NCBI GenBank assembly: GCA_964188305.1
Contig: OZ076885.1
Direction: 5' to 3' (one strand)
DNA from: Podarcis bocagei
Lineage: Eukaryota
Length of the DNA stretch: 64,000 nt
Shown: in pieces, positions 23,339 to 57,110 of the stretch
Layout of the letters: each line of letters starts with the position of its first letter
How positions within the stretch are numbered: position 1 is the first letter of the stretch
The notes under the pieces: model-generated
What the model saw: the letters and a program-made list of their open reading frames with translations, nothing else
Told to the model about the DNA's origin: nothing
Databases searched by the model: none
Position numbers and translations under genes: made by a program

Positions 23339-23458
<120 letters not shown>

Positions 23459-24492: not shown

Positions 24493-24511
24493 TAACAACA
24501 ACAACAACAAC

Positions 24512-24540
<29 letters not shown>
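24493..24540. repeat. (AAC)n-(AC)n microsatellite
   Basis: Directly visible. Confidence 0.9.
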
Positions 24541-24542
<2 letters not shown>

Positions 24543-24589
24543 GCAATAACAACTGGGTGTCCCTTTTTGTTGAGTTTGGATGAAGAGTT

Positions 24590-24820
24590 TGGATTTGATA
24601 TCCCGCTTTATCACTACCCGAAGGAGTCTCAAAGCGGCTAACATTCTCCTTTCCCTTCCTCCCCCACAACAAACACTCTGTGAGGTGAGTGGGGCTGAGA
24701 GACTTCAAAGAAGTGTGACTAGCCCAAGGTCACCCAGCAGCTGCATGTGGAGGAGCGGGGAATCGAACCCGGTTCACCAGATTACAAGTCCACCGCTCTT
24801 AACCACTACACCACACTGGC
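24590..24820 (-). mobile_element. tRNA-derived CORE/MIR-like SINE (Squam3-like)
   Basis: Minus-strand head GCCAGTGTGGTGTAGTGGTTAAGAGCGG (A box), GGTTCGATTCCC (B box), MIR-like core, short repeated tail. Confidence 0.75.
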
Positions 24821-25987
24821 TCACTCCTCACTCCTAGTCTAAAACAAAGTATTGCAAGATTCCAAGCCAGTTCTTGCATGCTGTGGCCATTGCTTATAGT
24901 AGTATGTGGGGTTGTTAGACTCAGCCAGGCTGGAATTTCTCAGATGTTGTTTGTATGATAAATGAATAGCCTGATTCCTCTGGTAGTGCTGGCTCGGGGT
25001 CAATAAGGCTTCTCAGGCCAGGAAGAGATGAGAGGTGTAGAGAAGGGCATGTGAATTGACTTCCCTTAGTCTTTTTACACTCCTTTAGAAAGTCATCATC
25101 TAGAGATGATGCCTGAACAAAAAACCCTGGGAACAGGCTTTTCAGCCTTGGGAAGGTCTATGACAGAGCAAGTTGAACAACTGGCTGTAGTGTAAGAGAC
25201 CAGATACCAAATAAATTGAATCCTTGTCAATCAAAAGCACAAAGCAGTGGAGCTACAGTGTAGAGAAGTGTATTGTTGCTTTGCTAAAACTGCTGCTCTA
25301 AAACTGGCAGACAAGAGCTCTTCTTTGCTTCATTTCCCGACCACAGTCCTTTCCTGACCACAGTCCTTCGATAAAATTTTAAATAGCACTTAATGGATTG
25401 GCAAAGGGCATTTTTTTCCTGCTCCCAGTGGTCAAATTGGAGAGCTTAGTCATGGTTTCCCCTTCCATTCTCTTTTCAGAGCAATACCATCTGAAAACAG
25501 TAGCTCCAGAAGGGGCCTGGGCTTTGCAGAAAAGTGGCTTGATTTTTTGTCTTATGTTTCGAAACAGGATCTAATTGAAAGCAAAATTACATACATATAA
25601 AACATTTAATCCTTTTTAAGGGAGAAGTAGCAGTAGAATTATGATGGCAATAAGGGGTGTCTGAAGCCATAGCAGCTGCTCTTACATCCAGATGAACAAA
25701 GGTGATTTAGTACAAGCAGCTATTTTACTGTTAGTTTCCAAAACACTCTAAGCTAACACTTGGAAGAACACAGCCGGTTTCTTACAGAGCAATCATTAGG
25801 ACTTCAGGTTCTCTGAAGCACAAATTCCCTTTATTCAGCTCATAAATCTGCCTCAAAGGTGTCCTTCTGCTCCTGTGGGACCAATTATTCCTCTCTTCCA
25901 GTCATGCTTTGTGCATTCAATTTGTCTGGAATTGTAACATGCATTATGAAATTTATTTTGAACAAACAAATGTGTTTATTTTTGCAG

Positions 25988-26161
25988 ACTATGCTGTGAC
26001 TGCACACTCCAAGCTGGTCATCATCACTGCTGGAGCCCGCCAGCAAGAAGGCGAGTCTCGCCTTAACTTGGTTCAGCGCAACGTGAACATCTTCAAATTC
26101 ATCATTCCCAGCATTGTCAAGTACAGCCCTGACTGCAAGCTGCTTGTTGTTTCAAATCCAG
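25988..26161 (+). CDS. LDHA: LDHA coding exon with substrate loop (..[33 protein letters not shown])
   Basis: AG/GT boundaries, 174 nt. Confidence 0.97.
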
Positions 26162-27834
26162 GTTGGTTGTGTCCTATTCTTAACTGCTTATGGACCATAA
26201 TTCACCCTCCAGTCCTTTGAAAGGAGAAATTGCTTGCTTCCAAGAAGGAAATCGGGGAATCCTGAAAGCATTCCAAGTTTTCCCTTGGCCATGAAAAGGA
26301 AAATATCTATTCCACCAGGACATCATGGTTTAACACTTAAGTTTCAATTCTGAAGTGGGACCTGCAACTAAATACCGTCCTATGGAGTGCTCCTGCTCAG
26401 GGTTCCATTCAGCCATGCCCTTTCCCAGAACACTCCATTCTCTTACCTCTTTCCATGTCCCCACTGTATCTACTCAGCAGCCAATCATCATTCCATGCCC
26501 ACTGATGATGCTGTCTTTCATTGGGCTGTTACAGGTCACATCCTTCCTTTTCTAAAGATTTCATGGACTTCTGGGTTCCATAAACTTGCTCATAACTCCT
26601 TTTAGAGTGTGGGTGGTGCTGTTTTGGCTATATAAGGATCTTCATTTGAAGAACGATTTTGCTATCTAGTATCTATGATGATTGGAACTATGGTGGTGAC
26701 AATCGTGGCTAGAGTCTGTTAAGGGATCACATCATTCCACTGTCTCATGGGAAATACAGCAGTACTTCCATGTTTGACTGTTAGGGTGCAGTCTACAGGA
26801 AACGCCTAACTTTTCCCCATGTAAAACGAGGTGCTGTGCCTAGTACCTAGCTGATAGCTCATTTACACTATTACTCTCTGTGACAACACACTTGCACACT
26901 CTTCTCTGATCTATTTACACAGTGGCTGCATTCAGATGCCCTGGTAAATCATGGTGGATGGACCATAGCTCAGTGTTGAAGTGTGTGTTCCTAAAATAGG
27001 AAAGTCGAAGGTTCAAACCCTGACATCTCCAGATAGAACCAAGAAAGATTCCTTGGCAATGCCAAGCTGGATGGACTATGGCCACAACTCTGTAAGGCAG
27101 CTCTTGAATTCCTATGAGCCCTGGGGTCATGTTCTCACACCCAGCCCTTGTGGCTATGAGGTTGGAAGCTTTCTTTTTGATGGGTTCAGAAGAACAAATA
27201 AACTGTAGTTAATAAGGAAGTGAAAGCTTCAAAACTCGTCCTCAGGGCTGGAGAAGATGGGAACAGGTGCAAGCCCAAGGCTCTCCTAGTCTTGTTTTGA
27301 CCCCAGTAAGCCATAGCTTACCATGATGTCTGGATGCAGGAGTTCAGGAAGTTAAACTAGAGACTTTGGCAAAAGGAAAGAGCTTTGGTTGCTCTGCTGG
27401 GTAAGAGCTTGGGGAGGTGTTGGGATACTTGCAAGATGCTATGTCCTGCTTCAGTCATGCCTGCATGCCCTGGTCCCAAGTGAGATATCGCTCCCTGCGT
27501 CCTCTGTAAGACACAGATAATTCTGGATCGGTGCTGTTAACTCACAGGGGACATCTACTAGGAAAGTCAGAACCATAGTACAGAACCATCACTCTTGCCT
27601 GAGCACCTCATATTAAAATGAGAAGATTGTAAAGAAGCTCCTCAATATTCCCTCTGCCCTTTAACTGCTGCCTGGAGCCAGGATGGTTTTGGCATTTCAT
27701 CATTAAGGTAGCCTTGTGTAGAACAGATGAAATTAAACAGCCTCTCTTTGTGGAGAAGGATTGCAGATTCCCAGTGCTCTTGAAGCTTGTCTGTCTTTAA
27801 TAGTGCATATGACAATCACTTTCTAACCAGATGA

Positions 27835-28116
<282 letters not shown>

Positions 28117-28180
28117 TGATGGTAACGGTACCTGGTGAAAAGGAGAGCAGCAGAGCATTTCCCAGATCTACCTCTTGAAT

Positions 28181-28390
28181 GTAGAATCGTAGAGTTAGAA
28201 GGAACCTTTGAGTAATTTAGGCTAGTCCCCTGCTTAATGCTGGATCCTCCAATGCAGGGTGCATGTACAGCATCCCTGATAAAGAACCATCCATTGTCTA
28301 CTTAAATGCCTGCAATGAAGGAGAGCCCATCGCCTCCAAAGGCAGTGTTCCATTGCTGAGGAATTCTTATCATTAGGAAGCATCTCCTAA
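28181..28390 (-). mobile_element. Diverged CR1 LINE 3' fragment
   Basis: TAGAATCGTAGAGTTAGAAGG tail and similarity to the reverse complement of 47400-47610. Confidence 0.5.
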
Positions 28391-29596
28391 CACTGGGTTA
28401 GGTAAAATAGTTTTCTCCGGACGTTGCTGAACTACAGCTCTTATCATTGACCATGATGGGCTGATGGGGAGTTGGAATCCAACAAATGACAGCTTTTTGG
28501 AAATTTGAAGACTGCTATAGAATCGTTGACCACATCAGACTTAGGTGCTGCTGGGCAAACCCACAGAGAGGTTTCCATACTCTTCCCTCTGTATGGAAGT
28601 TAGGAATATAATCTAGCTGTCCCTACTGCATGAAGTAACACTAGATGGTCTATATTTGACTTGAGCAGCTCTGTTGCAAAAGGTCAGCTTTGTAATCCAA
28701 GTAGGCCAAACCCTACCAGGCTAAATTCTACCCTTTACTCCTAACTGGGGAGTTCACAGTAAATCCTTTTCATGTCAGAGACCCTTGCATGCTGGTGTTC
28801 AGTAAAGCAGTTACAAGTTACTTGTCTTGGCCCCTCTGTCATCCTATATTTGGGAGTTGTGTGATCTCATACAGCCCTGCACCAATACTGCCACTAGAAT
28901 TCTGCTTTGATGCATAAACTCAGATTCTACTCTACTACTCCTCTATCCCGTCTCACAGCAGTGAATATAAGCACAATCCCCTGTTCTGGGGTTTCTCTCC
29001 CTCTCTGACACCCCAAGCCAATTGGTGGTGGGGAGGTAGAGGGGAAAGCCACAGTGCGCTAGCACAAGTCCTTGCACGAGCTTCCATTAGCAGGCTTCAT
29101 TACTTGAATCTGGCCCTCAGCTGTGTACTTGGCTGCTTGCTTGCCTTAGGTGAGCAGCTGCTGCCGCCACACTCATCCTTGAATGACAGATTATATGCAG
29201 TGTATGGTTGCCAAGCCCTGTGTGTGTGGTCACAGCACTTTTGCAGTCTTTCTTCTGCCCCAAGGGCTATGGACCATTTTAGGAAGATGTGTGTGCATAG
29301 CCACAGCAGGATGAAAACCCACCCTTTTCCCTGGGTTTATGAGTTAAAAGGAACAGGTCAGTGGCTAATCCAGCATGGATGAGCACAAGGATCCATCTCC
29401 ACTGCCTGTTAGCCAAAGTTTAAGGGGAAGGTATGTGTGCGTAGCAAGATTCTTAGTAATTATAAAACTGTACTTGGTACATCATGCTACATTAACTGCC
29501 CAGCTCAGATCTGTTCGAAACACTTGTGAATCTTACTTTCTGTGAAGTTGGAAAACATTCTAGATTGCTCAGAAAAATCTCCTGCATTTTATTCAG

Positions 29597-29714
29597 TGCC
29601 TGTCTGGAGTGGCGTGAATGTTGCTGGCGTCTCTTTGAAAACTTTGCATCCAGACATGGGGTCTGATAGTGACAAGGAGAACTGGAAAGAAGTCCACAAG
29701 CATGTAGTAGAAAG
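29597..29714 (+). CDS. LDHA: LDHA coding exon ([40 protein letters not shown])
   Basis: AG/GT boundaries, 118 nt. Confidence 0.97.
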
Positions 29715-30672
29715 GTAATCTTTGTCTCGTCTCTGTGTGAGAGAGGAAATGGGGTTCCACTGAGCTTCCAGAAATTGCCTGTGTCTCATTTTCAAGGATG
29801 CCACAGCCTACATTGCTTCAACGAGGTCCCCTGATCCTTAACAGAGCATTTTTGCCCCATGACATGCACTTAACTTTGGACCAAACCCCTTCGTTTTCCC
29901 ACAATATAATCTCCAATTGTCCAGTTTTTAAGAAATATTGATTTAGAGTGCTGTTTACAGTGTTCAGATTACTGGAGAGTGCTTTTCCAGTGTTGGAAAC
30001 CACTGTTTAGCAGTTAATTTCCCTTTGTTGATAGATACTATATAGCAATCACTATATTCTGCACTGTGGAATTTGAATGTGTTTTGAAAGCAAAATAAAG
30101 TAAATTCTGCATACATTTCACATTCCTGAAGGACTGATCCATTTACAAACTGCCCTGGTTTACGTAACATGATGGGTAATAGCATTAATGTTTAACTACC
30201 ATTACATGTGAATTAGCAGCTTGTTAGTGTAGGCGTTCAGAAATCCAGATTGCTTCACCCTCATTCTTGCTTGCGCTACATGCAACAACCACAAGCTGTG
30301 GCTGCTTGTGCCATATAATCTGAACCCTGGTTTTAATCTTTCTAAACAAACCATTGTCTAACTTTGCTCAGACAACCTGAGAAGCCAAGGCTGGTAGTTT
30401 CTCTTTTCGCCCCCACCCCTAAATGGTGTGGCTAGGAAAGGAGAAGGGACACTGCAAGGACTTTGAGCATGCTGCTCATTTGTATTTAATGTTTAAATAT
30501 TAACTATGGCTTGACAAAATATGCAAGCAAAGCTACTCCATGCAGGCACCAGCATCTCTACAGGGAAAGGCTAGTAGCTTGCTTGTAAAAATAATAAATT
30601 AATAGTTCTAATGCCTGCAACAGATGCCATTTGGAGATAGAGGATAAGTAGCCTCAGATGGACTTCACCTGA

Positions 30673-30954
<282 letters not shown>

Positions 30955-31134
30955 TAGTCAAGCTAACAGAGGCAGTAGCTGCCAAAGCAAGTAAATGAGT
31001 TTGCTTTAAATAAGGAACAGATCTCCCTGCAAGGATGGCACTTTCTCCCCCTTCCCACTAATGGGGAAAGCATTTATTACATGCAAATCAACACATTATT
31101 TAATTGGCTTCTTTCTTTTTACTGTTCTTTCTAG

Positions 31135-32662: not shown

Positions 32663-32752
32663 TCAGTAGAGATCACTGAGACCTGCCGTTTTTCTTGCTT
32701 TCTGCATAAGTGCCCGCAGCTGAAACTGCTTGCGAGACAAGAGGCGGACATG
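32663..32752 (-). CDS. TSG101: TSG101 exon 10 (HVRLLSRKQFQLRALMQKARKTAGLSDLY*)
   Basis: ttttcag acceptor, TGA stop, steadiness-box C-terminus; minus-strand AATAAA at 32439-32444, 32301-32306 and 31975-31980. Confidence 0.97.
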   Translation of the reverse strand, partial: HVRLLSRKQFQLRALMQKARKTAGLSDLY

Positions 32753-33621: not shown

Positions 33622-33861
33622 CTTTAGAAAGATATCAAGATCAATAACTCCACGTCTCAATGCTTCACCCAGGTAAAAGATGGTATCTTCAATGGCATTT
33701 TCCTCAGCATACAAGTTCAGAATTTGTTTGTAAAGTGGCGCTGTAGGAACAATAACTTCGTCTATGTCATTATTTTCTGACTGACTCTCCATTTTTTCCA
33801 AGGCAGAACTCAGCTCTTCGTCTTTCTTTTTCAGGAGGTCAATGTTCTTGTCAACTTCAGC
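33622..33861 (-). CDS. TSG101: TSG101 exon 9 (AEVDKNIDLLKKKDEELSSALEKMESQSENNDIDEVIVPTAPLYKQ...DLDIFLK)
   Basis: AG/GT boundaries, 240 nt, internal PTAP motif. Confidence 0.97.
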
Positions 33862-34986: not shown

Positions 34987-35189
34987 CACTTCCTGGTCTA
35001 GGCGAGTTACCATCTCTTCAAGCTTTTGGTGACCTTTTTTCAAGTCTTCCTCTGTGCGCTTCAAGGCATTGAGCTCTGCCTGGGCACGGTCCATTTCTTC
35101 TTTCATTCTCCATCTCAGCTTATCACTGACTGCTGAAATAAGCGAAGCTCGAATGGTATCTTCGCTAATGGTGCCATCTCTGCTGGGAC
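34987..35189 (-). CDS. TSG101: TSG101 exon 8, coiled coil (GPSRDGTISEDTIRASLISAVSDKLRWRMKEEMDRAQAEL...LDQEV)
   Basis: AG/GT boundaries, 203 nt, phase-1 acceptor. Confidence 0.97.
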
Positions 35190-37063
35190 CTGTACAATAA
35201 GATTCAGTCACAGAATCAACCCCTTCTACTTCTAAGGAGATTTGTAGGTCATGACAATCTGTTTGCAAAGGTATTTGAGGCTAAAAAAAATTAGAGTATG
35301 TTAAAACAGATTAATTTTCAGACATAACATTCCAAAAGGTGTACCCATGAACTTCTAAGTTGCTTAATAATCTATTGTACTTTCCCAACTTAAGGAGGTT
35401 CTGCCCATCTTCTCACAGAGTGCAACTGTGAACTTGAACCAGCAAATATTTTAAAAGCAACCATAGAGCTTTCAAGTGTTAGCTAACTAACACATTAGCT
35501 AATTATCACAATGAAAAAACATCGTCCTTGAACACAGGTTTAGCTCTCAGCCACTCAAACTTTACTTTGGAACACCCCCAAATTCAAAATGTTTTAATGA
35601 AAACACAGAATGCTTCTGTCAGATTACTAGCTCTGGTTATTGTTTGAGGAGCACTGAGTTGAGCTACAAACAATGAAACACTAGTTTATTTTTTATACAA
35701 ATATTTCTTTTGCTTTTGCATCAACCATCATATAAAATATCTAGTCATTTTTTATCACCAAGTTCACATGAAACCTCAAATGTTTGCCATGCACAAGATG
35801 GTCTTTCCTTATTAAAACCTTTCCTTCCAAACACTCACATCCACGAATTCACATTGCACATTCAAATCTACAAGTTTTTCACTTGTCTCCTCACAGACAA
35901 CACTGTCTGAAAGTTTCCTTACATTGAGGACTTGAAATTTTATAAAAAATGCCCTGTCTTAATCACTACCGTTACTAATCTACAAATATATTTTAAGAAA
36001 GTATTCAATAAACTGTGTAGGTTTCCAAACATCAAAATTATATCAAACCTAGCAAGAATTAGCAACAGCACTCTAGTATAAAAATTGTATTTTACCTTAA
36101 CACACCAACTCAAAGAGCCCCACAGGTTTCATATGCAGCTTGAATTTGCCGCCATCCATGTGTTCTCTTAACATTAAAACTCTTCTTCTTACAGTCTCTT
36201 TCACAATTATCAGTCCATTCTTTTTGCTTTTGAGGTGTTCCCACTGCCCCAAATAGCACTTAGTATGTAGAAAGTGTGGTATGGGTCCATCCCAGCAGTT
36301 TCCTGACCAGCCCACCTGCAGCAATTTTGTCCACTCAGCAAAAGTAAGCAAAGTACGGAAAACATCTGTTCATGCTGTCGTTTCTGAATCCGCTGTCTTG
36401 CTGCTGCTTCATTCACTCTGGTGGGATCTTCACGCCAAAACAACTTTATGGAATCACAGTCTCTGATTGGAACTTCCGACTCCAGACTTGGGATTTCACT
36501 TTATGAGGATACATTGTTGATTCATTTTCAGTATTTCATTCTTCCTGCTGTCATTTTCTTTTCGTTAAATGGATATAAGCTTCTTATCTTCAGAATAAAA
36601 TTAATGACGGATGAGTATCCCCATTTCATTTCTTCAATGCGTTTAAAGTCCAATTACCAATTTCAGTGAACACCAGATGATTTTTATTTGTTCTCATTTC
36701 CATTCTTGTCTTGGGTTCATGTCCAACAAAGTTCAAAGTCTGACGCTAATGTCCATTATGTTGATCATTGCTCCCTAAAGTCTTTCTGCTCTTCTCTTGA
36801 GTATGAATAGGCGTGGTATCATATGTAAGGAACACTGAAAACTGGTGTCAGATAAAGAAACTCTTCTGCATAACAAATGTTGAGCAATTTAAACCAAAAA
36901 TTATTTGAACACAAAACATTATTACAGCTCAGGGTTCTGCACATTGCTGATTCTAAACATTTGCGTATCATCTGAGTTCCCCCCATGAAGCTTTTATCCC
37001 AAAAACAAAACAAAAAACCTCTCCAAACATTGGCATTATTAATTTTCTATTATATTAAAAGTA

Positions 37064-37093
37064 TAATAATAATAATAATAAATAATAATAATA

Positions 37094-37143
<50 letters not shown>
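37064..37143. repeat. (AAT)n microsatellite
   Basis: Directly visible. Confidence 0.95.
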
Positions 37144-37144
<1 letters not shown>

Positions 37145-40100
37145 GATTTTAATAAGACATTCTTATGGGACAAGGGCCCCAAAACATCCTGGAAAATCTC
37201 CAAATACCAACACCTCCAAAAATGCCTCCCACTTTTACATAATTACTGGTATGTAATTTTTAACAGTTTCAACTTGAATTATATGCATATTTCTGAAGAA
37301 TGAACAGGCATACAGACAGTTACGCTGATACATGCTGCTAGATGTATACAATTTGTAAGGCGAGCTCAAATAAAGGCATCAAAACTCATGTTAACAAATT
37401 CCCGCAGGTTCCAAAATGACAGCTAAGAAATAAGCAAAGGCCAGAGCCAACATCCTTAGAATTGTTGTTGCGTTGCTTTTAAAACAAGCCATATTCTCAT
37501 TAAATATAAAAGTTGTTGTTAAAACATTTATTCAAATGCAAGAAAACGAGTATAATTCAGGCTAAAACAGAGATGGAAGCCAGGATATTGTTTGATATTC
37601 TTTCAGCTTTAGAGGGGCACCATGGAATGTGTTGTGTCATCAAGTGCTGTCCCAACTACTGAAAAGACCCAAGGCAAAACAGTATGTAGTAGACGTTCTA
37701 TAATATAATCTCAGGTGATTTGAGTGAACTGCAAACATTCAGACGTTTTAACTAGCCAAATATAGGAGTGTAACTTAAGTGATCTAAGCAAATATGTTTA
37801 TGTACATCAAAAGATTTAACCCTCTAATCCCTCTCAACTGATTTAAGAATTCATCAAAGTTTGCCTTTAAGAGATTAAGACCAGACTAGCTGCTATGTGG
37901 TTGGACAAATGAAAACAAGTATTCTGGCAGACTTAAGGTAGGTTTGAAGTGATGTCAGCATGTGATTATCTGCATTGCCAAATTCCAAGGGCTACTTTTG
38001 GTTGAATTTGAAGTACCGTGTCAAATCACTAAAGAGGTTCTCTTAAGTGTCTTCCCCATTCACCCTGTGTTGCATATTCCTGTACCTGAAGACAGCTGCA
38101 CGCAAGAGTTTACTGCAAAAATTGGTCCTAAATTGCAACATGTTGCATCGTTTTCTTCTGAATGATCTAGAGAACAGTTTCAACAAAACAAATGAAGGTT
38201 CTGTTCTGAAACTATCCATTTCTGTGTTTTCCATACCAAGTTTTATCTTCTTCTACTACTGTCTAGACTTGTTCTGTTTAAAACGAATTATTCAGAGTAA
38301 GAAAATCATGAAGGCAGTTTCAAAAAGTAACTTAACCTTATTTTGCTAATCCCCTGCTTCAGAAACTGTATTAAAATTGGGCAACAGCAAAATAAGAAAA
38401 ATACCTCAAAAAAGAAAAACCTGAACAAAAACGAACAAACCACTTGGCTCAACTCAGTAAGCTGTGCTAAAGAGGAAGGTAAACACTGTTCAAAGCAACT
38501 ATGGGTGATATCAAATGTTACTCATTCAGAAGTAGACCCATTTAGATCAATGGACTTAAGCCCACTTATTTCAGTCGGTCTACTCAATGCTAATTTAGGA
38601 TTATCAGCCTATATGGTCATCCAGAAAATGATATTGAAAAAACCAGCAAAACAAAGTCCTATTCAAGTGCTAGACCCACATTTCCATCTCTCTCTGCCCC
38701 AGGTTTCTTTCCACCATAAGCATATATCATATAAATATATCTTAAAACCAGTTACAACTTCTTGGTCAAAGCTGTTTATTTATGAAGCTTTTGTCTAGAG
38801 CTTAAATAAAGTCAGAGAAATAAGTCTGCATGTACAAATATATGGTTTTAGATGTACAGAGAACAAGACAGGCTACCACCATATACCAATTTATACCAGG
38901 AGCACTAGATTTGAAGAGCACCTTCAAGAACATGAACCCTTAACATTTTCAATCACTTCCATAATTAGCCACCCTTAGAGAAGAGTTCCTGGCATGCAGT
39001 CATACGTCCAAGGGAAAACTCAGACATTTAACCTTTGCTATACAGAGTCTAGTTTCAGAACTGACCTTATGGTACTGACCTTACAGTACTGCAGACTAGC
39101 AGTTGACTCAGACAGAAAAGAAACAGCCAAATATCAACTTGGCACTGGAAGAAACTGATGTTTAATTTAATTTAATAATGATGACTATATATTACCACCA
39201 GCAGGACAATGTGAAATGTAGCATAAACAAAGTAATAATGGTGTATTCCTCAATTATTAACTAGAAAAGAATTTTAATTATCTTTTCAGTTGACTTTTCA
39301 GGAGGGGTATGATGTCAAACAAAATATTAACACTGAAAGATGGAAGTGCAAGATTAAACAGACTAAATTGCTTTAGCTGTATCAGAACTGCCAGAGTAGA
39401 CAGTCCATTTTAAAGGATTAATACATTGTGGAAGTCCATCAGCTGGGGGCCCAATAACCAGTTTGAATGACTTCCAGAAAATACTGCCTTACTAGGCCTC
39501 TGTTTAGTTGAACTTCAGGTAAGACATTTCTTCAGATAAGGTGGTAACCTCCACCCCCACCCCACAAATTAAGTACCTTAAGATTAACACCGCCATAAAC
39601 CCTTAAAATGCAGCTTATATTCTTGAGCAAAAAAAACCCCATTCTCTGAGAATAAAAATTGAAGGGAAAGAACATTGATATCAGCCTGGGCTCAATCTTC
39701 ACTGAACCTTTTACCAGGCAATGCCAGGAATTTAACCTGACACATCTTCAGCAGACAAAATATCTGCTCATTGAGCTATGGTCTCTTCTTTCTCAGACCC
39801 TGCTTCTAGTGGCACAACATCCAAGGTTGGAGAGCCCTCCATAATGGCCCCCATGAGCTGCAAGGAATTTCCAGCAGAAGGAAATTCCACCTCTTGCCCA
39901 GTGGAAATGCTTTTCACTTGTGCATTGGGATCCTGCTCCATGATAACATAAGTGAACTCTGAACACCTGGATGTTAATATATTTACGGAAAGAAATCTTA
40001 GAAGAATGAACCCTGATATCCATCTCTACTAGTCTTTTTAGGGGATTCCATTCTAATTATATAACTGCTACTTACCCCCCCAAAGCTTAATTAAGTCTGC

Positions 40101-42794
40101 AAATCAAAGAGACCCTGTGGAAGATGTTGCTCTGCTCACTGCTATATTCCAGTTCCCCAAGAAACTGGAGTATTCCAAAAAGGACAAAGATTTCTGAAAG
40201 GCCACCTTGTTCGTACAGATGTGCGAGCAAGGGAGACGCTGTGAGCTAACATGAAAATAGAAAAGCAAACTTAATATTTGTTGTTCATTCATAAACATGC
40301 AACATACTTGAAATACTATATACCAACCATAAGTAAACCATATATAGTACTTTAACAGCCCCAACAAAATGAATACCATGGATCCAAAAAGCAACACTTT
40401 TCCCTTGCATTCTCCCAAAAAACCACCCTTGAGAGTAGAGCGAACCTCAAGAACAGTATGAGATGGGTGGTGAGGAAATGCAGTTGAAGGGGGAGATCGG
40501 TAAGCTGCCTTGTGCAAGTAGAAGTCCTTTCAACTTATGTAAGACCAAGTCTGGATCCAAAGCTTTACTTTTATCTCATGCAGATAATGGTAGTAACAGC
40601 TCTTGACAGTTTTGTTTTAATAAAATTATGAGTAGTAGTAGCTTACTTAAACACACTATTTTTATACAACCTAAATATAGCTGAGGAAAGTATCACCATT
40701 TCTGGGATGTTTTGACTGTGGGCTGAATCAAGAAGTGTTTCAACAAGTACAAACAGCAACCCTAAGAACATCTTTCCTCAATCGTCTTTATAAAAAAAAT
40801 TCACATCATTCAGTACTAAGTGTTCACTAACAAAGAATGTAAGGACTAAGAAATAAATACTAGTATTTTATTGTTAGAACACAAATCTCCAAGTTATACA
40901 AATTAGATGGATCAAACAGCATTGCCCAACATCAAAAAGGTAGAAAAGATAGGCCCAGATCCATATTGGAACTTAACGTCCCTACTACAAGCAAGTATTC
41001 AAAATGAAGGCCATAGTCAGTTGTAAGCGCCTGCCATGTCCTTAAGGGAACGAGCTGGACTGCACTATAAACATGTAGAATTCTGCTCCTGTCCCTCCCA
41101 AAGGCTATATAGTTCTCCCCCAATCTAGTGGGAAATTTCCAGAGTGGTATGCAAAGAGAGGTTATGTAAAAAAATATAAATGTAATCCAAGCATTCATCT
41201 TAAACTGAAGTAAAGTTCAATTCTAGTCTGCTACATTCTATTCCTGTTGCCCTTGCATTCCAGAATCACATTTGTGCTGAATTTTAGCTTCCAACATCAA
41301 CCTACAAGATTGATATCATATTTGGAAGTACTGACCATTTAAAACCACAATACCAACGAATCCAGAATTCGTCTGGATATTGACCTGATTTCAGAGAAGC
41401 TGGGAAGGTGAATAAGCCACTGAAGTTAAGCTCTCTCTTGTTTGTGAAAGGCACATTACAGCATAAAAGCAATTTACATAAAATGTGCTACCGAAACACT
41501 GAAGAATATTGTCTCATGTGGCTTCATTCACAACCAACTCTCCTTAAGAATAATCAAGTTCACGGCAGGGTGCTTTTTTTAAAATAAAAAGCATGTTTCC
41601 CTGTAATTTGTTTCCTAGTAATTACTAACAGTGATTGTGAAAAATGGCCGTTCTATTAGATTATATTTTAAAAGCAAATTCGGATGCAGGCGATCTGCCT
41701 TTTTTCCAGGAAAGGTGACACAGTAATGCCAAAGCAAAACATGGCAAAACTGTCATACAGTCACTGTCAGACAGTTCAACAAGCTTCAAGGTAACCAGAA
41801 TATGTACCTTCACACAGTTTTAACAAGTGCCATAATAGCTCTGGGCAGTCATGAACTTTTGCAATGAATGTCTTGCAGAATAACATTTAAAACTTTCAGT
41901 GTCTAAAACTTATATAGGATTTTGGATGTGAAATTCCTGGTTGAATAAGCCATGAAGGAGCATCTGGTGTTTATGCTGGTTTTAGTACTTTGAGCCTAGG
42001 CTCTTTAACTCAGTTTCCCATTATGTCTGAAATTGGGAGCACTGGTTTAAAGTTGATTTACTAACCAGCATCTGAAATCTGATTAGCAAACTTGTATTAA
42101 GCCTCAATTCCCCATTTCAGAGGAAAGTGTGACTTAAAAGCAGCTTGGGCTGAACCTGGCACACATGGGGAGGCAGGAATAAGCTTGATGCTTATTCTTG
42201 CTTAATGAACTATGGTTTATTAAGAATTTTACCTCTGAGCCTGCCATATGTTAACACTCATAACTAGAGTAACATGTGAGTCCATGTATAATGAAGCCCT
42301 AATGCTTCAGTTTGTTTTCCTGCTCTAGTCAGACTCACCTTTTCCAAAGTTACATATTTTTTATGATGTTTTTTCTGATCTACCCACATAAAATAGCTTT
42401 GTAAGCTATTACTGCACCCATATTTTAGGTAGCTATCACTCATGCTATTCACTGAGCATTTTTTGGATGGGAATATCAATCAGGGAAACTAAACTGCTTG
42501 GCAGTGTCTCTAAGCACACTGTAGAAGCAAACTGAATTCAGTGGGGTGGGGAAGTAAACAGAATTTAAAAAAAACAGTTAAATATATCGGCAAATGTCTT
42601 ACTGCAAGTGGTTGCAGAACAATGCCACTAGCAATTACATTACTAAATTAATACCCACCACCATATTAACAGTGCAATTCTGCTGCCTGAAAATTCAAAT
42701 TACCACCGTTCACAACCTTCTAATAATCTCTGTCTGTAGAGACCTTCCATACTTGCTTAAACTGAAATCTATTATTCCTTCTCCAAAGAAAAAG

Positions 42795-43375
42795 TTAGAT
42801 CAAAGTTTCCAAAACACTTAATAAATCCAGGTTGAAGACATCTGTGCCACTTTCAGACAAGAGAACACCATCTAGATGGAACAATCCTGGAGGCTCTGGG
42901 ACAAGTGAATCGTGTTTGATTATAATCCCTCCAATACGTTCCATAAAACTGCTGATTTCCCGATTTACTCTCTTCCTGCTTTTCTCCATAAATTCATGGG
43001 ACATATCTTGGCTCCATGCTTTGCGGGGTACAATATTAGACCAGACAAGGATGCTGTTCTTGAATGTTATCTTAATATGTATTATATCTTTCTTCATTTG
43101 TCTTATGAGATCATAATCTGCGTATGTCCCAAGGTCATTTCCTCCTAGATGGACCACCAATATATCAGGATCTGTTAGACGCCGCCGCGTGTGCAATAGG
43201 CTGGGTATCAACTGATCCCATGTCATGCCACTCTTTCCTAGCCAATGTAGTTTGGCATCCTCCAGTCGAATGCCCAACTGTGGGCCAAAGCTTCTTTCAA
43301 GTGCTCTTTTTTCTGCCCAGAAAACGTAAGAATGACCACATATCCATACCTGTTTCTGCTTTCTTCTGCCATCTG
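42795..43375 (-). CDS. SGNH/GDSL-hydrolase-fold coding exon (Ngaro/DIRS retrotransposon hydrolase-like) nested in TSG101 intron 7; putative alternative terminal exon
   Basis: Uninterrupted frame with block I VWICGHSY, block II WLGKSG, block III PDILVVHLGGND and block V DGVLLSESG. Preceded by branch point TTAAT, a pyrimidine tract and a TAGCAG acceptor in phase 1. TAA at 42797-42795; minus-strand AATAAA at 42216-42221. Confidence 0.8.
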
Positions 43376-45434
43376 CTATTAAGAGAACAAACATACATTA
43401 ATGCTTCATAAATTTTGTGGCCCAAGCACCTCCTGAAAACTTTATTCAGTGTTGTCTGAATTATTCCATGTAAAAATCAAAACATGAGACACCTCTATCT
43501 TAAATTACATGGCATAATAATCCATAAAGTCAACTCTTTATTTGAAGATTGGTGTGTAAAGTTTACAGGTAAAAATGCCTGTATGCAAGTTATAAGATCA
43601 ATGGAAAGGAATGCATGCTCATGTACCCTTTTGATCAATCTTACAAGAGCAACTGAAAATATCTTTTCTAAATAAAGTTGCTAACAATCCATTTAGATCT
43701 TGATAAAGTATATAGGTTTGATAGATGTGCTCTACTCAGAATGAAGTTCTTCCAGATTTTTTTCCAAAATTAACAAAAGGTCAGGAGCAGAAGTCCATAC
43801 CTTTCAAGCAGACCAAGCAGAAGAGAAAGCTTCGGTTCTTAAGAAAGCCCAGGGAGTAGAGTTATACTTCTCTATTAAATCTTATGTAGAAATTTATGTA
43901 ACCATTTCCACGCTTTGCCTGACAGGATTAATTTTTGTTGCCATATTACATCTCCATTTCTAAAAATTCATTTTCTAAACAAAATGCTAGAAAGCTTGCA
44001 CTAGGGATAGATTTTTTATTACTGCCCTGAAAGAAGAGTAATTTGATCTCTTCTAAACAATGTAGACCTCCAGTATTAAACTACAGAAAATTATCAGTTT
44101 TACATTTTCCCTGCAATTTTCAACTTGGTTTTGTTTATGAAGTCTTTTCCTGACATGCAATCCAGTCAATTTTATAATTGTAAAAATGGTTTTATTGTTT
44201 TTAGAGTTTGCATCTTTTGTATTTGATCTTATTGTACATAGCTTCAATAGCATATGGCTCTGAAGCAGTCCATAGACCTGTAAAATAACGATAATAGTAA
44301 TAGCTCAACAAAAGTGATGATAATTTTTGGAGTTCAAATATATTCTATGTGACATTGGACAAGAAAACAGTGGATGATGATGTGGCCAGGGATCTTGCAG
44401 TCTTTGTGCTAAATAAGAATGTGCTTTCTAAATTATACTCTTTTGAGGGTTTTCAAGTTTTTGCTTATCACTAGAGGGAACAATACTTTCAGATTCTTAG
44501 GACTTCTCTCCTAAACAGGTTTGGTAGTTCTGGGCTAAGTAGGAACACAGGTGAGCAAGCATTTCAGCACCCAAGAATTACGCTGAATGTGAAACAGAAG
44601 AAAGCTGTTGATTGGCACCTTTAGCTTACAGATCAACAAACTTCACAAGATGAAAATCTGGTGATGGTAGCTGGGCTACGTCATGAACGGCAGTTCTACA
44701 CTTGCATCACACACACAAAAGTGAAAAAAAATTGCAGTTTGGGAGTGTACTGGAAAACACGATGGAGTCAAGGATAGCTTGGTTTGCTTCCAGTTAAGCA
44801 CGGAACTCAACTGTATTTTCAGTGCTACTCGACAGCAATCAAGGCTTCTTCACATCATCCTTAGGTACTGTTCTCCATCCTTGGCTGACATAGCAAAAGG
44901 CTTGTAAATAGGCTGTAGTACTGCATCTTGGACTGCAGTTACTCCACACTGGCCTCTTCATTCTTGTGCCCAAATGATGCTGCTGTTCAAGTTCCTGCTA
45001 CATTCAGTGGTGTGATCAAATGAAACCCACCCCTTTCTCATCATTGAAAAGTTCATAACTACAAGATCATTCCCCCAGTCAATAAGAACATAATAAATAT
45101 GTAGGCTTAAAAAAAAAAAGCCTTCGGGCTTTAATTTATCTTGGACCTGCAAACATAATATTTTCAAACACATGTGAACTTCATTACATAAAACAGTTCA
45201 ATAAAAATGAAGTCTGTTGAACAGTGAAAACAGTTAATGATTGTTCCATAAATCAAACAATGGAGAAAAAAAATGAACATCTAGCATGGTTAAAGTGTAA
45301 TGTAACTGATGTTTTTGCCACGAGGCACTTAATGTCCATCTCAGAAATAGGTGTATTTGGATTTGCTTTATGCTGTATATTTAGAATGAGCAATCTCATT
45401 ACATTCGGAAAAAGACACTTTCAAAGCTACTCAC

Positions 45435-45532
45435 CCACAGTAGTTACAGGAGGCTGAGAAGGGTAGTGTTGTGTGCTAGTTGTTGGTGGAAATGATCCGC
45501 TAGGGGGAGGGTAAGGATAGCTTGGGTAACCA
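45435..45532 (-). CDS. TSG101: TSG101 exon 7, proline-rich (SGYPSYPYPPPSGSFPPTTSTQHYPSQPPVTTV)
   Basis: AG acceptor, phase-1 donor GTG G|GTGAGT, 98 nt. Confidence 0.93.
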
Positions 45533-46981
45533 CTTTAAAGGGGAGGGGGAGAAAGACACAGTGTTATGCATTCTTTAGTTAATATTTCCATTCATAAGCA
45601 ATTTTTTAAATACATTTAAACAATTTATAATAGACAAACAGAATTTAAAAAAGAGCCACTGATGCAGATATAAATGGTCAGAGTAATATTCAAGACCATG
45701 AGAAATTTGTTGTCATCCATAGGTTTCAGAGGTATCGATGTTTTAATCAATGTTATTCAAATATGTATAAATAAATTTCAAGTTCCCTGATCAAAGTTTC
45801 TTCACATTTGTGGATTAAAGCTGAAGATAGGTAGAGGCACTCAGTCTAATTATTCATGGTTCATTCTATGTTAGCAGTTAACAGGTTTGTACTTTGTTGC
45901 ATTATTTTCATTTGAAAAGGTCTATGTTGCCTTGGTGGTTTCATTTACAGAGGGGAGATTGAGCAGGCTTCTGCAACTGCCAGAGCATGTACACATTTTA
46001 GAGTTTCTGCATGCTACATTACTTTCCTCAAAAGTTAGTGCCCTCTATTTCCAGTCAGTTGGTGCCATGCACTCCATTTTCAGAATAAGTTATAAAATCC
46101 ATATAGTGATGGCAGAACTAATAAGCAATCAATAGTAGGAAACTAGAAACAATAATACCACAGGATATGAAAAAAGGAGATACAATACAGTACATGTGTG
46201 GGATTTCTACACTCAGAACTGTGTCTATTGTGAACAAGCCTTACTGTTTAATTCATTGTACTAACACTAGCCAACAACTAAAGGGAGAAAACGAGCCGAT
46301 GTGTAGAAATAAAGCAGTCCTCAGCCCTCTTCTGTCTCCATACATTGAAAGAACATGTGCATTTTATCAAGGTTGGTGTTAGATTTTAGTAGACTCTCAG
46401 ATTGGGCCTCTCTCAGTTCCCCTGCCCAACAACGTGTCTTCCCTTGGGCACTCTGCCCACCAATTCTGCTGTCACCAGTCATTTCTCACTCCCTCTGGTT
46501 GTGCTTATCCAGCAGATGGCAGCGGTGTTTTTGATGGAAAACAGGCTACTACTCAGCTCTGATCTTCAGCAGCAGATGGTTGCCATCTCAGAGACCCCAA
46601 ATGCAATGCCTGTTTGTGAGCACTGCATTTTGGGGGCCCTGAGATGGTGGCCACCCACCACGGACTGGAGTTTGAGTGGTAGCTTGGTTCCCATATGAAA
46701 ATGGCACCTGCTGGTGGAGGGTAGTGATCGGTGCATTGGATAGAGACCCCAACGGTGGTGGAAATGCCAGGCAGGGTGTCAATGCGGGTGATAGCAAGAC
46801 TGGCATCAGCTCCAATGGGGCCCTGCCAAAACACGTGGGCTGCAGCAGTTGCTTCAGTACGTTGGGTTCTAATCCTGGGTCTGTTTTGGAGTTGCTCCAC
46901 CACCACTGCCCACACTGTCTATTGCTGGCTCCACCCTCAGACTTATACGTATTGGGCAGAAAGTCTGAAGGGGAAATTTAC

Positions 46982-47615
46982 ACACGAGCCAACAGTGTGA
47001 CGCAGCAGCTAAAAAAGCCAATGCAATTCTGGGCTGCATCAATAGGAGTATAGCATCTAGATCAAGGGAAGTAATAGTGCCACTGTATTCTGCTCTGGTC
47101 AGACCTCACCTGGAGTACTGTGTCCAGTTCTGGGCACCACAGTTCAAGAAGGACACTGACAAACTGGAACGTGTCCAGAGGAGGGCAACCAAAATGCTCA
47201 AAGGCCTGGAAACGATGCCTTATGAGGAACGGCTAAGGGAGCTGGGCATGTTTAGCCTGGAGAAGAGGAGGTTAAGGGGTGATATGCTAGCCATGTTCAA
47301 ATATATAAAAGGATGTCACATAGAGGAGGGAGAAAGGTTGTTTTCTGCTGCTCCGGAGAAGTGGACACGGAGCAATGGATCCAAACTACAAGAAAGAAGA
47401 TTCCACCTAAACATTAGGAAGAACTTCCTGACAGTAAGAGCTGTTCGACAGTGGAATTTGCTGCCAAGGAGTGTGGTGGAGTCTCCTTCTTTGGAGGTCT
47501 TTAAGCAGAGGCTTGACAACCATATGTCAGGAGTGCTCTGATGGTGCTTCCTGCTTGGCAGGGGGTTGGACTCGATGGCCCTTGTGGTCTATTCCAACTC
47601 TATGATTTTCTGATT
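46982..47615 (+). mobile_element. CR1 LINE 3' end (5'-truncated), RT C-terminal region
   Basis: ORF 47077-47541 [20 protein letters not shown]...[10 protein letters not shown]...[12 protein letters not shown] is the canonical CR1 ORF2 C-terminus; tail TTCCAACTCTATGATTTTCTGATTCTA. Confidence 0.93.
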
Positions 47616-48247: not shown

Positions 48248-48314
48248 CTTGGGTTAGGTGGTGGTCCAGGAGGGAAATGAGGCATTCCACTTGGCATTCC
48301 TGGCATATAGGAAG
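48248..48314 (-). CDS. TSG101: TSG101 exon 6 (SSYMPGMPSGMPHFPPGPPPNP)
   Basis: gcacag acceptor, AG|GTAAGC donor, 67 nt. Confidence 0.93.
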
Positions 48315-50766: not shown

Positions 50767-50893
50767 AGTTTGGTGGTCCTGTTGCCTGGTAAGGTGGGTA
50801 GGCTGCTGAAATGGTAGGCCGAGAGAAGACTGGAGGTTCTTCTCCAAACACCACAATCATCACTTGAATCAAGCCAATCAAATCTGATTGTGG
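50767..50893 (-). CDS. TSG101: TSG101 exon 5 (PQSDLIGLIQVMIVVFGEEPPVFSRPTISAAYPPYQATGPPN)
   Basis: AG/GT boundaries, 127 nt; end of the UEV domain and the GPPxxxY motif region. Confidence 0.96.
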
Positions 50894-51380: not shown

Positions 51381-51544
51381 ATGTTTCCATTCATGTAGAT
51401 ATGGAAGGTATATCTTGCCATTTGCATCCACGTGCTTCCCAGTTTTAATTGTCATTGAACTAGTTGGCTTAACAAAACAGATTGGTGGATTGTATGGATA
51501 TGTATCCAACAGCCACAGACATATTGGGATATTGTATGTGTTAC
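51381..51544 (-). CDS. TSG101: TSG101 exon 4, UEV core ([28 protein letters not shown]...YLHEWKH)
   Basis: AG/GT boundaries, 164 nt. Confidence 0.97.
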
Positions 51545-51972: not shown

Positions 51973-52038
51973 CTTTGTAATTTACAGGAATGGTTCCTGT
52001 GAGGCTCATCAGTTCTCTTGATGAACCATCATTAAAAA
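51973..52038 (-). CDS. TSG101: TSG101 exon 3 (VFNDGSSRELMSLTGTIPVNYK)
   Basis: AG/GT boundaries, 66 nt. Confidence 0.96.
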
Positions 52039-52758: not shown

Positions 52759-52843
52759 CATATCCATCCATTACAGGCTTGAGGTCTTTGTACTGGGTAA
52801 TAACACTGACAGTTTCCTGAACAGTCAAGTCTCTGTACTTGTA
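52759..52843 (-). CDS. TSG101: TSG101 exon 2 (YKYRDLTVQETVSVITQYKDLKPVMDGY)
   Basis: AG/GT boundaries, 85 nt. Confidence 0.96.
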
Positions 52844-56559: not shown

Positions 56560-57110
56560 ATTCCTGCTGCCAGAAAGCCGGCCTCGTTTATTCGTGTCTC
56601 GCTAGGATATTTTTGTGGGGGCCCCCCCAGGCAGCAGGAAGAAGGGAAAGATAATGACTCTGGAGCACGTTTCGCTCGGGAAGCGGCGTGAGGTGAGGGG
56701 AGAGGGGCGGCATGGAGGCCCCGCCGGGTGGGCGAGCGCGGAGGAAGCCCCGAGGCTGTTCCCCCGGCAGAAGCCCGCTGGGAGGGGCTCCCCGGCCGGC
56801 CTCGCCGTTACCTTGCCAAGCATCTTCTTCAGCTGGCTCTCCGACACGGCCATGGCGGCGGCGGCGGCAGCGGGCCCTGCCGGCCGCCGGTGGTCGTCGT
56901 TCCGCGCCCCTCCTGCCGCTCCTCCGACTCCCCGCGCGAACGAGGAAACCTGCCCCGGCCTCCCTTCCGGTGCTTCCTTTCCACCCGTTTCCGCTCGCCG
57001 GCGCGACGTCACTTCCGGCGGCCAGGTGCCGCATGCGCGTGAGCGTACACTGCGGTCACTGACGAGCCCATAGAGATAGTAACGTGGAGAGGGTCACGCA
57101 GGCGCCGCCT
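56560..57110 (-). promoter_or_regulatory. TSG101: TSG101 CpG-island promoter with overlapping ETS-CRE motif and NRF1-like site
   Basis: Minus-strand CCGGAAGTGACGTCG at 57018-57004; GCATGCGC at 57031-57038; CpG-rich. Confidence 0.8.
56812..56853 (-). CDS. TSG101: TSG101 exon 1 CDS (MAVSESQLKKMLGK)
   Basis: Strong Kozak GCCGCCGCCATGG, donor AAG|GTAAC. The ten exons sum to 1182 nt (393 aa + stop). Confidence 0.97.

Follow-up and report, generated by a model that had tools for sequence, protein, structure and literature searches.

An SGNH-domain exon of probable Ngaro retrotransposon origin as an alternative last exon of amniote TSG101

Introduction

What is an intact reading frame of the SGNH hydrolase family doing in a stretch of intron-like lizard DNA? 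The frame lies in a 64,000-nucleotide stretch of the Podarcis bocagei genome (contig OZ076885.1 of assembly GCA_964188305.1; hereafter the window), where a sequence-only reading had taken it for a free-standing, domesticated retrotransposon hydrolase. We consider it nearly certain that the frame is instead an alternative last exon spliced to TSG101, and likely that a Ngaro retrotransposon was its source. To the fuller explanation, which adds a decoy or adaptor role for the fusion protein, we give a probability of about one half.

TSG101 is an intensely studied and essential subunit of ESCRT-I. A search of the open literature found no published description of a TSG101-SGNH isoform, though the tables of a large TE-fusion screen could include it; where two TSG101 reviews treat splice variants, those discussed are exon-skipping or deletion forms (PMC7073217, PMC8393842).

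The SGNH reading frame

A stop-free frame of 200 codons occupies positions 42795–43397 on the minus strand, and none of 200 dinucleotide-block shuffles of the surrounding 10.2-kb intron produced a frame of at least 200 codons (longest frame: median 109, maximum 189). Pfam Lipase_GDSL_2 matches it with E 1.5e-4, at 22.7 bits, under the curated cut-off of 32.9. The AlphaFold model of the domain (pLDDT 93) supports the SGNH alpha/beta fold, with a best Z of 19.2 against SGNH structures (rmsd 2.5 Å, 173 residues aligned) and Foldseek TM of 0.70–0.76 against GDSL and PAF-AH structures. Searching PDB sequences with a family profile gave a sole match below E 0.01, the ZfL2-1 esterase 4C1B (E 5.6e-6); the single sequence gave nothing significant there (two matches, E 0.1 and 0.96), and the ESM Atlas returned just generic chordate and mollusc SGNH clusters. 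With its 200 codons, its fold match and all the motifs that had been listed for it, the SGNH ORF is confirmed as real.

Gene structure and transcripts

The ORF sits inside intron 7 of lizard TSG101, on the same strand as the gene and after a NAGNAG acceptor; all features given here are on the minus strand. The coding part of exon 1 is at 56812–56853, with its ATG at 56853. Exons 2 (52759–52843), 3 (51973–52038) and 4 (51381–51544) encode the UEV domain, exon 5 (50767–50893) its end and the start of the proline-rich region, and exons 6 (48248–48314) and 7 (45435–45532) the rest of that region. Exon 7, with read ends at 45433/45535, has a phase-1 donor that joins either exon 8 or position 43375, the start of the SGNH exon, whose coding part (42795–43375; 581 nt including the stop) has a phase-1 acceptor located by junction reads. 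The pyrimidine tract and NAGNAG tandem acceptor are evident in the sequence at 43373–43400. We rejected as a start the ATG at 43394, from which the 199-aa contig predictions P0002–P0005 begin; it falls within the pyrimidine tract that precedes the acceptor and is presumably a gene-calling artefact. The start in the sequence-only reading needs correction, true coding sequence beginning at 43375 and not at 43394–43397. Use of the proximal AG yields ...V-A-D-G (409 aa) and of the distal AG ...V-D-G (408 aa); both forms occur among database isoforms, and the RNA reads show the proximal form only.

Exons 1–7 and the SGNH exon together make an open frame of 409 aa, with three differences from TSG101 isoform X1 of P. 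raffonei in RefSeq. The product (408/409 aa) consists of UEV, proline-rich region and SGNH domain, and has neither coiled coil nor steadiness box; in the annotated fusion P0021 Pfam finds UEV and Lipase_GDSL_2 only. A model of the full-length fusion, built by AlphaFold from a shallow alignment, has a mean pLDDT of 45 and supports no reading of domain packing. The part of TSG101 that forms the ESCRT-I stalk and steadiness box is encoded beyond the stop and UTR of the SGNH exon and is therefore missing from the fusion: exon 8 (coiled coil; 34987–35189, the low end inferred from translation and the start agreeing with loose read ends at exon 7), exon 9 (internal PTAP and steadiness box; 33622–33861) and the coding part of exon 10 (32663–32752).

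The RNA reads are those of a closely related species and not from the P. bocagei genome itself. Reads spanning the GT..AG junction from 45435 to 43375 numbered four in run X23 and six in run X24. In the two bulk RNA runs these are 4/84 (~5%) and 6/56 (~11%) of the exits from exon 7, the other 80 and 50 going to exon 8; in a single-cell run none of 18 exits entered the SGNH exon. The fusion is a minor isoform in the two bulk runs, and the canonical TSG101 isoform is kept. It is these exon 7 splice reads and the in-frame fusion that speak against a free-standing gene. Between 43457 and 40848 minus-strand RNA depth is about 4–19 per bin; it drops to 1.2 and 0 one bin further on and is 0–4 between the SGNH exon and exon 7, giving a 3′ UTR of about 1.9 kb (40850–42794, its 3′ end approximate). 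The depth falls at an AATAAA (40867–40872) that is likely the poly(A) signal of this isoform, poly(A) tails being absent among the listed reads. Of the AT-rich flanks that had been called intron-like, the 5′ side is indeed TSG101 intron 7, while the 3′ side is the exon's own UTR. Five of the six read differences listed in the ORF are non-synonymous (among 40 of 127 difference rows).

Distribution, conservation and age

Annotations that call it simply a 'TSG101 isoform' show this fusion in squamates, turtles, crocodilians, echidna, marsupials, manatee and tenrec, the cluster holding many squamates, six marsupials and two manatees beside its turtle, crocodilian, echidna and tenrec members. Among 25 longer homologues 23 are TSG101-type proteins with the SGNH domain (70–98%), 22 of them with a Pfam UEV. 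A word-based search of annotated proteins gave no bird, boreoeutherian, xenarthran or amphibian match, which is not proof of loss. The age of an amniote-wide fusion is about 300 million years, and the capture likely predates the split of reptiles and mammals, in the stem amniote.

Fusion orthologues outside lacertids are 68–83% identical, and the junction of exon 7 with the SGNH exon is in frame and identical across all lineages that have the fusion. Across 58 distinct orthologue domains there is no internal stop, and identity reaches 95% or more in 102 of the 191 columns. This protein conservation across amniotes supports constraint on the SGNH exon. Such constraint appears uneven, and the lacertid sequences suggest that it is weaker on the SGNH part, which differs within that family at 13–18 of 189 sites, versus 1–2 of 216 in the N-terminal part.

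The exon might serve only as an RNA-level switch, early polyadenylation lowering the amount of full-length TSG101, or might mainly be an independent small gene under its own promoter; in either case the fusion protein would be incidental. The minor level of the isoform would fit this, as would a contig (X1) that passes the acceptor unspliced and two turtle annotations (P0006 and P0080) that place the SGNH exon in a separate gene model. An RNA switch needs no 193 open codons held at such identity over some 300 million years, the junction is in the same frame everywhere, and we consider both very improbable beside a translated alternative exon.

Origin of the exon

The exon DNA is intronless and single-copy, its sole match in the genome being itself. 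Its genomic relatives are 30–37% identical and lie mostly within Ngaro elements carrying gag, RT, YR and SGNH; the ORF of the L037 element, for example, matches with E 1e-33 and 34% identity, and a YR ORF lies at most 1.5 kb from the SGNH domain in 25 of the 29 best non-self relatives. Elements were surveyed in 20 chosen ten-kb stretches out of 150 scored matches. Loci L037 and L044 show the order gag-like, RT, YR, SGNH together with split direct repeats, the arrangement described for Ngaro (PMC9210276). On the element ORFs Pfam put RVT_1 above cut-off in three of four RT ORFs and an integrase-type domain below cut-off in three of four YR ORFs.

Around the TSG101 exon itself no such element was detected. 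Fifteen gag, RT and YR ORF queries from Ngaro copies of this genome found nothing in intron 7 at E<=1, and their best match in the whole window had E 0.036, against 1e-33 for an SGNH control. Direct or inverted repeats of at least 40 nt were absent from 35200–45430; split direct repeats were seen in two of three control element loci. The donor was likely the SGNH gene of a Ngaro retrotransposon, to judge from these sequence relationships. The sequence-only reading was right to assign the frame to the Ngaro SGNH family, to find no element left around it and to see in it an old exaptation and not a recent insertion. We reject a young element fragment: orthology is amniote-wide, the exon is single-copy, and the next genomic relative after the self match is only 37% identical. 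A retrocopy of a cellular SGNH gene is likewise rejected, no close cellular parent having been found; PAFAH1B and IAH1 reach only 13–19% identity in structural matches.

In a tree of 149 of 289 non-selected domains, left after dereplication, and 12 chosen orthologues, the TSG101-SGNH orthologues come out as a single clade with 0.999 support and a long stem, nested among SGNH family domains; support around that stem is 0.78 or lower (0.78, 0.45), with a midpoint root and unnamed neighbours. The highest identities outside the orthologues (41–43%) belong to P0113–P0116, which group with teleost-type host proteins. This, and the arbitrary root, would be compatible with an exon taken from an SGNH gene already domesticated in a cell, such as the teleost cold-shock/SGNH type. 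However, TSG101 and the teleost-type clade (support 1.0) stay apart in the tree, and the lack of introns, the single-copy DNA and the low identity to PAF-AH and IAH1 also disfavor a cellular donor. This origin, like that from a young element fragment, is extremely improbable, and direct capture from Ngaro is preferred.

Catalytic residues

The block I Ser, block II Gly and block III Asn are kept in all 13 aligned orthologue rows, and among 107 orthologue records the Ser motif is found in 104 and GGND, the Asn motif, in all. The block V Asp-x-x-His pair is not intact. In 107/107 records the catalytic His is Leu; the catalytic Asp is Asn in 27/107, and the residue at that place differs even between this genome and the species of the RNA reads. 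Other domains of the family keep the His in 102 of 148 cases. The SGNH domain of the fusion is probably catalytically dead; because the catalytic His is lost, 'hydrolase', which the sequence-only reading had offered as its function, is doubtful and probably wrong.

An altered active site might yet work as an esterase or acyl-binding enzyme that remodels lipids at sites of ubiquitinated cargo. Ser, Gly and Asn are in place, and the His of an FHL motif, two residues before the Asp and found in 107/107 records (FHL was part of the selecting motif), would stand in for the missing one. The universal Leu and the variable Asp weigh against this, as does ZfL2-1, in which H282S ends hydrolysis (PMC3905857), and we regard an active enzyme as improbable. 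The active-site mutants of ZfL2-1 still bind liposomes (PMC3905857), so membrane binding without catalysis has a precedent. Net charge of the orthologue domains averages +7 and goes down to 0; the commonest Ngaro family here is mostly at +8 to +14.

Proposed function

Our preferred account of function, at somewhat less than even odds, is that of a catalytically dead, membrane-binding adaptor or decoy unable to join ESCRT-I. ESCRT-I owes its stalk and headpiece to the coiled coil and steadiness box, the headpiece being formed by the steadiness box (PMC3314968). Lacking exons 8–10, the fusion would not assemble with VPS28 and VPS37; it would also escape the control of protein level exerted through the steadiness box. 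With its UEV intact, the fusion is predicted to remain able to bind ubiquitin and P(S/T)AP motifs (HRS, Tal, MGRN1, viral late domains), and its basic SGNH domain to keep it at acidic membranes, by analogy with the ZfL2-1 mutants. The proposed net effect is that the fusion, under the control of splicing, competes with ESCRT-I recruitment or re-routes it.

A specialised form of this explanation is an antiviral or anti-retroelement decoy, in which the UEV soaks up the P(S/T)AP late domains of enveloped viruses as they bud at membranes, with no hand-over to ESCRT-I. The N-terminal part of TSG101 is dominant-negative on PTAP function, a fragment of it blocking that of Gag (PMC5029901), and truncated ESCRT copies such as retroCHMP3 restrict budding (bioRxiv 10.1101/2020.08.30.273656). 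Fast protein change in lacertids and afrotherians, with apparent lineage losses, would suit a conflict gene; the change could equally be relaxation, though, canonical TSG101 has the same UEV, which is highly conserved (88–96%), and the isoform was at a low level in the RNA runs examined. A dedicated antiviral role seems unlikely.

The Oskar OSK domain binds RNA. The dead SGNH domain might likewise be a protein- or RNA-binding module through which the UEV gains a partner other than the membrane; the setting might be the germ line, or a defence against Ngaro particles. The fold matches include OSK (Z 16.0, rmsd 3.0, 162 aligned), the domain has conserved basic stretches, teleost cold-shock-domain proteins bear the same SGNH family C-terminally, and OSK has been named as a non-catalytic SGNH domain (PMC3905857). 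The Oskar match is, however, no better than those to many enzymes, and the ZfL2-1 esterase, a lipid binder, does not bind oligo-(A) RNA (PMC3905857). We think a module of this kind distinctly unlikely, and return to the membrane-bound decoy or adaptor.

An isoform with a swapped domain, kept for some 300 million years in reptiles, monotremes, marsupials and afrotherians, would offer a natural means of uncoupling the ubiquitin- and PTAP-binding UEV from ESCRT-I. In this exon, as in several other captured copies, the host retained the SGNH fold while the catalytic His was dropped, a pattern that points to a domain useful for binding and not for hydrolysis. The Ngaro SGNH ORF is described as having 'no proven function' (PMC9210276), and the TSG101 exon offers a handle on its role. 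More speculatively, and on balance rather doubtful as a whole, amniotes may have gained a second TSG101: a splice-switched, membrane-anchored UEV decoy. Acting outside ESCRT-I, it would intercept PTAP and ubiquitin signals, among them signals from viruses that are budding; it would have been lost in birds and most placentals including humans, and would belong to a series of independent events in which Ngaro SGNH pseudo-enzymes became C-terminal modules of host proteins.

Comparison with known systems

The SGNH exon is best read as a capture of the LAP2alpha type. In TMPO LAP2alpha and ZNF451-L2a, too, the host C terminus is exchanged for that of one large alternative 3′ exon, which stems from a DIRS-order, tyrosine-recombinase retrotransposon and brings a poly(A) signal of its own (here putative); the original isoform is kept (Abascal et al., 2015, PMC4495291). 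Their donor is described as the gag-like ORF1 of DIRS1 and their age as mammalian or eutherian (PMC4495291), whereas here the likely donor is a Ngaro SGNH ORF and the fusion amniote-wide; TSG101, the host here, is a core subunit of ESCRT-I, and what was captured is a predicted pseudo-enzyme. Abascal et al. do not mention TSG101, SGNH or Ngaro. Lyosin (L1 ORF1-MYL4), NUP42-L1 and USP4-L1 are comparable RefSeq isoforms, in which a first or last coding exon used as an alternative goes back to an old retrotransposon and has been lost in some lineages (Kitao et al., 2025, PMC12129022). They have LINE-1 ORF1p as donor and came from a screen for LINE ORF1p; the four genes listed do not include TSG101, and the ten supplement files contain no TSG101, DIRS, Ngaro or SGNH term.

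The ZfL2-1 ORF1p esterase (4C1B; Schneider et al., 2013, PMC3905857) is likewise an SGNH domain of retrotransposons, and the best PDB sequence match. Its binding of acidic lipids is independent of catalysis, which for the TSG101 exon is predicted by analogy; it is a protein of a CR1/L2-clade element, with Ser-Asp-His intact and activity measured, where the host exon has Leu for His. The SGNH hydrolase of ORF4 in Ngaro-like elements (PMC9210276) is of the same domain family, with the 30–37% identity given above for the copies in this genome; unlike those elements, the TSG101 locus lacks split direct repeats as well as gag, RT and YR, is single-copy, is spliced to a host mRNA and has lost the His. 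Closest to the proposed role are retroCHMP3 (bioRxiv 10.1101/2020.08.30.273656) and the N-terminal TSG101 fragment (Demirov 2002, cited in PMC5029901), both ESCRT subunits without the C-terminal part that connects them to the pathway. The former is an ESCRT-III retrocopy and the latter an artificial construct, while the fusion described here is a natural splice isoform that adds a foreign domain, with a comparable role predicted.

The TSG101 locus and its alternative last exon

The SGNH ORF (42795-43397, -) is real: it is spliced as an alternative last exon of TSG101, ancient and derived from a transposon. TSG101 lies on the minus strand in ten coding exons, from 56853 to 32663, and its intron 7 (45434-35190, -) contains the ORF on the same strand. 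The frame is stop-free over 200 codons, a length that none of 200 shuffles of the intron around it reached, and all the SGNH motifs quoted in the sequence-only reading are present in it. The exon starts at a pyrimidine tract and NAGNAG acceptor in phase 1, matching the exon 7 donor phase. Exons 1-7 plus the SGNH exon form a single 409-aa frame whose one stop is terminal, differing at 3 residues from RefSeq Podarcis raffonei "TSG101 isoform X1".

Elsewhere in the window, LDHA exons found by translation at about 17000-31000 (+; e.g., frames 22067-22492 and 25846-26220) converge on the 3′ end of TSG101, the same synteny as at human 11p15. TSG101 intron 6 holds a CR1-like LINE 3′ fragment (46969-47541, +), whose open 190-codon frame has no Pfam match at cut-off.

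Expression

Four of the 24 listed sequence runs were checked over 40500-45700, the reads being from a close relative rather than from the P. bocagei genome itself. A joint from 45435 to 43375, with GT..AG ends, is crossed by 4 reads of X23 and 6 of X24, both bulk RNA runs. The canonical exon 7-8 splice was counted by loose read ends matching the exon 8 start, because exon 8 lies outside that interval, and has 80 (X23) and 50 (X24) reads, so that the SGNH splice accounts for 4/84 and 6/56 of exon-7 exits; the single-cell run X21 has 0 SGNH-joint reads vs. 18 canonical. Bulk reads are all of one orientation, that of minus-strand RNA under the usual stranded protocol. Their depth is about 7-14 across the coding part of the SGNH exon and 4-19 on down to about 40850, dropping at an AATAAA (40867-40872), and 0-4 between the SGNH exon and exon 7. 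The X1 contig, presumably RNA, continues unspliced for 168 nt beyond the acceptor, without the joint.

Domain, orthologues and constraint

Against Pfam the ORF matches Lipase_GDSL_2 below the cut-off (E 1.5e-4). The structure predicted with an alignment of 35 rows (pLDDT 93) gives 154 Foldseek matches at E<=0.001, and its best structural match to the SGNH fold has Z 19.2 and rmsd 2.5, with 173 aligned.

A search among longer proteins yielded 25 matches, 23 of them TSG101-type with an SGNH domain (70-98% identity), and Pfam UEV was found in 22 of these 23; homologues from three Podarcis species are 97-98% identical. Cluster look-ups place the fusion in squamates (geckos, iguanians, anguimorphs, an amphisbaenian and snakes), in a pleurodire, many cryptodire turtles, alligators and a crocodile, and among mammals in echidna, six marsupials, two manatees and a tenrec. 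Across 15 aligned fusions, the junction (..TT[VI]-A?-D[GAT]RR..) and C-terminal stop line up. None of the 30 matches in a protein search with the manatee SGNH domain is from a bird, boreoeutherian or amphibian; at the level of protein sequence, this suggests that the exon was lost in lineages without a match, such as birds and boreoeutherians.

An 808-aa Alligator sinensis protein named UEVLD (P0041) joins UEV and LDH to the same SGNH domain; it probably results from read-through between the neighbouring UEVLD and TSG101 genes or from a merging of their models.

Compared with P. raffonei, 17 non-lacertid species are 88-96% identical over the UEV, 77-90% over the proline-rich region and 68-83% over the SGNH domain, and 102 of 191 SGNH columns reach at least 95% identity (58 distinct domains). 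Pairs of lacertids show 13-18 differences over 189 SGNH sites and 1-2 over 216 N-terminal sites; the corresponding counts are 23 vs. 8 for manatee and tenrec and 2 vs. 5 for two marsupials. Five of the six listed read differences within the ORF change the residue. The SGNH bias in lacertids and in manatee/tenrec, with the residue-changing reads, counts against uniform constraint. Either relaxation or positive selection could explain the faster change on these data.

Probable origin from a Ngaro element

A genome search for SGNH relatives, in which 150 of 2019 candidates were scored, gave non-self matches of 30-37% identity throughout, and the exon DNA has one match, itself. Of the 29 best non-self loci, 25 have a tyrosine recombinase (YR) ORF within 1.5 kb, and similarity to both reverse transcriptase (RT) and YR occurs in 14 of 20 selected 10-kb stretches. 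Stretch L037 has the ORF order gag-like, RT (RVT_1, E 2e-10), YR, SGNH, with split direct repeats (A1 98-322, B1 7481-7780, A2 7851-8075, B2 8253-8552; 99-100% identity). L044 has the same order and repeats; L047 has no split direct repeats inside the stretch examined. The L037/L044 arrangement is the Ngaro layout as given in PMC9210276.

A tree of 161 domains places the orthologues in a single clade (0.999) with a long stem. They branch roughly by host group and are nested among family members, with support of 0.78 or lower around the stem. RT or YR similarity occurs within the same protein in only 12 of 143 new representatives, as expected if SGNH is normally its own ORF. The Ngaro origin proposed by the sequence-only reading is thus well supported at the level of element type. 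Its other claim, that no parent element surrounds the ORF, also held: neither 15 gag/RT/YR queries nor blastn of 49 genomic loci gave a match in intron 7.

Other SGNH copies and captures

An open Ngaro-type SGNH frame at L031:6616-7227 (contig G000:C2, about 96.666 Mb) has an acceptor-like start, a degenerate active site lacking the His, and no RT/YR within 9.9 kb; it is likely a second domesticated exon of a host gene. Six diverged open frames cluster on contig G000:C9 at 79.11-79.19 Mb (L032:2518-3135, 5251-5871 and 7685-8290; L033:2815-3441 and 8628-9233; L045:6441-7040). Most have changed catalytic residues and match database proteins P0162, P0234, P0153 and P0139 at 59-93%; YR remnants adjoin some, and the cluster is a possible hotspot of SGNH capture. 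On contig G000:C19, dozens of intact Ngaro SGNH copies share a 207-codon frame and near-identical scores, a crowding that suggests a recent burst on a chromosome that is rich in repeats and may be the W.

Five uncharacterised proteins from geckos (P0119, P0120, P0123, P0125, P0126; 1200-3100 aa) carry 2-7 SGNH domains each, form one clade (support 1.0), have the catalytic His in none of those tallied, and are probably an independent squamate domestication. Nine large proteins (P0121, P0131, P0135, P0137, P0141, P0142, P0144, P0145, P0147; two named teleost) combine CSDE1-type cold-shock domains with the same SGNH family. S-G-N-D-H is intact in the C-terminal copy of P0135, P0142 and P0147, and the group may represent an older capture in which the enzyme is still live.

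Catalytic state and proposed function

The orthologues retain the active-site Ser, Gly and Asn; in block V, Leu replaces the His in 107/107 orthologue records and Asn replaces the Asp in 27/107 (isoforms and duplicates counted). The His is retained in 102 of 148 other family domains, tallied element-adjacent copies included. Searched against the PDB, the family profile finds its best match in 4C1B, the esterase of the ZfL2-1 retrotransposon (E 5.6e-6). In that enzyme H282S abolishes hydrolysis, and active-site mutants still bind liposomes via surface charge (PMC3905857). Residual catalysis by the SGNH domain is a rival reading of the orthologues' active site. Orthologue domains have a mean net charge of +7 (range 0 to +11); an Oskar-like RNA/protein-binding role is an alternative to membrane binding.

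Choice of the SGNH exon would end the mRNA ahead of exons 8-10, and the exon might instead act as an RNA-level switch. The encoded fusion protein keeps the UEV, the domain that recognises ubiquitin and P(S/T)AP motifs (PMC7073217, PMC8232796, PMC10159163), and lacks the coiled coil, internal PTAP and steadiness box, the last forming the ESCRT-I headpiece (PMC3314968) and governing TSG101 levels (PMC7073217). It would stand outside ESCRT-I, where the predicted dead esterase would anchor it to acidic membranes, and the anchored UEV would compete for or redirect HRS, Tal/MGRN1, ubiquitinated cargo or viral late domains. An artificial TSG101 N-terminal fragment acts in such a way on HIV-1 Gag (PMC5029901), and retroCHMP3 (bioRxiv 10.1101/2020.08.30.273656) is a natural precedent as a truncated ESCRT inhibitor. 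Antiviral specialisation of the isoform is a rival to this general role.

Comparison with known fusions

Fusion sequences are already in RefSeq under generic isoform names. No published description of a TSG101-SGNH fusion was found in a search reaching neither subscription journals nor bioRxiv supplements, and TSG101 is missing from the Kitao supplements (PMC12129022) and the Abascal text (PMC4495291). The same architecture is found in TMPO LAP2alpha and ZNF451-L2a, whose alternative 3′ exons derive from DIRS1 gag (PMC4495291), and in Lyosin, NUP42-L1 and USP4-L1 (PMC12129022). Relative to these cases the novelty lies in a donor domain of the Ngaro SGNH type, a host that is an ESCRT core subunit, an amniote age for the capture, and a captured domain that is a predicted pseudo-enzyme.
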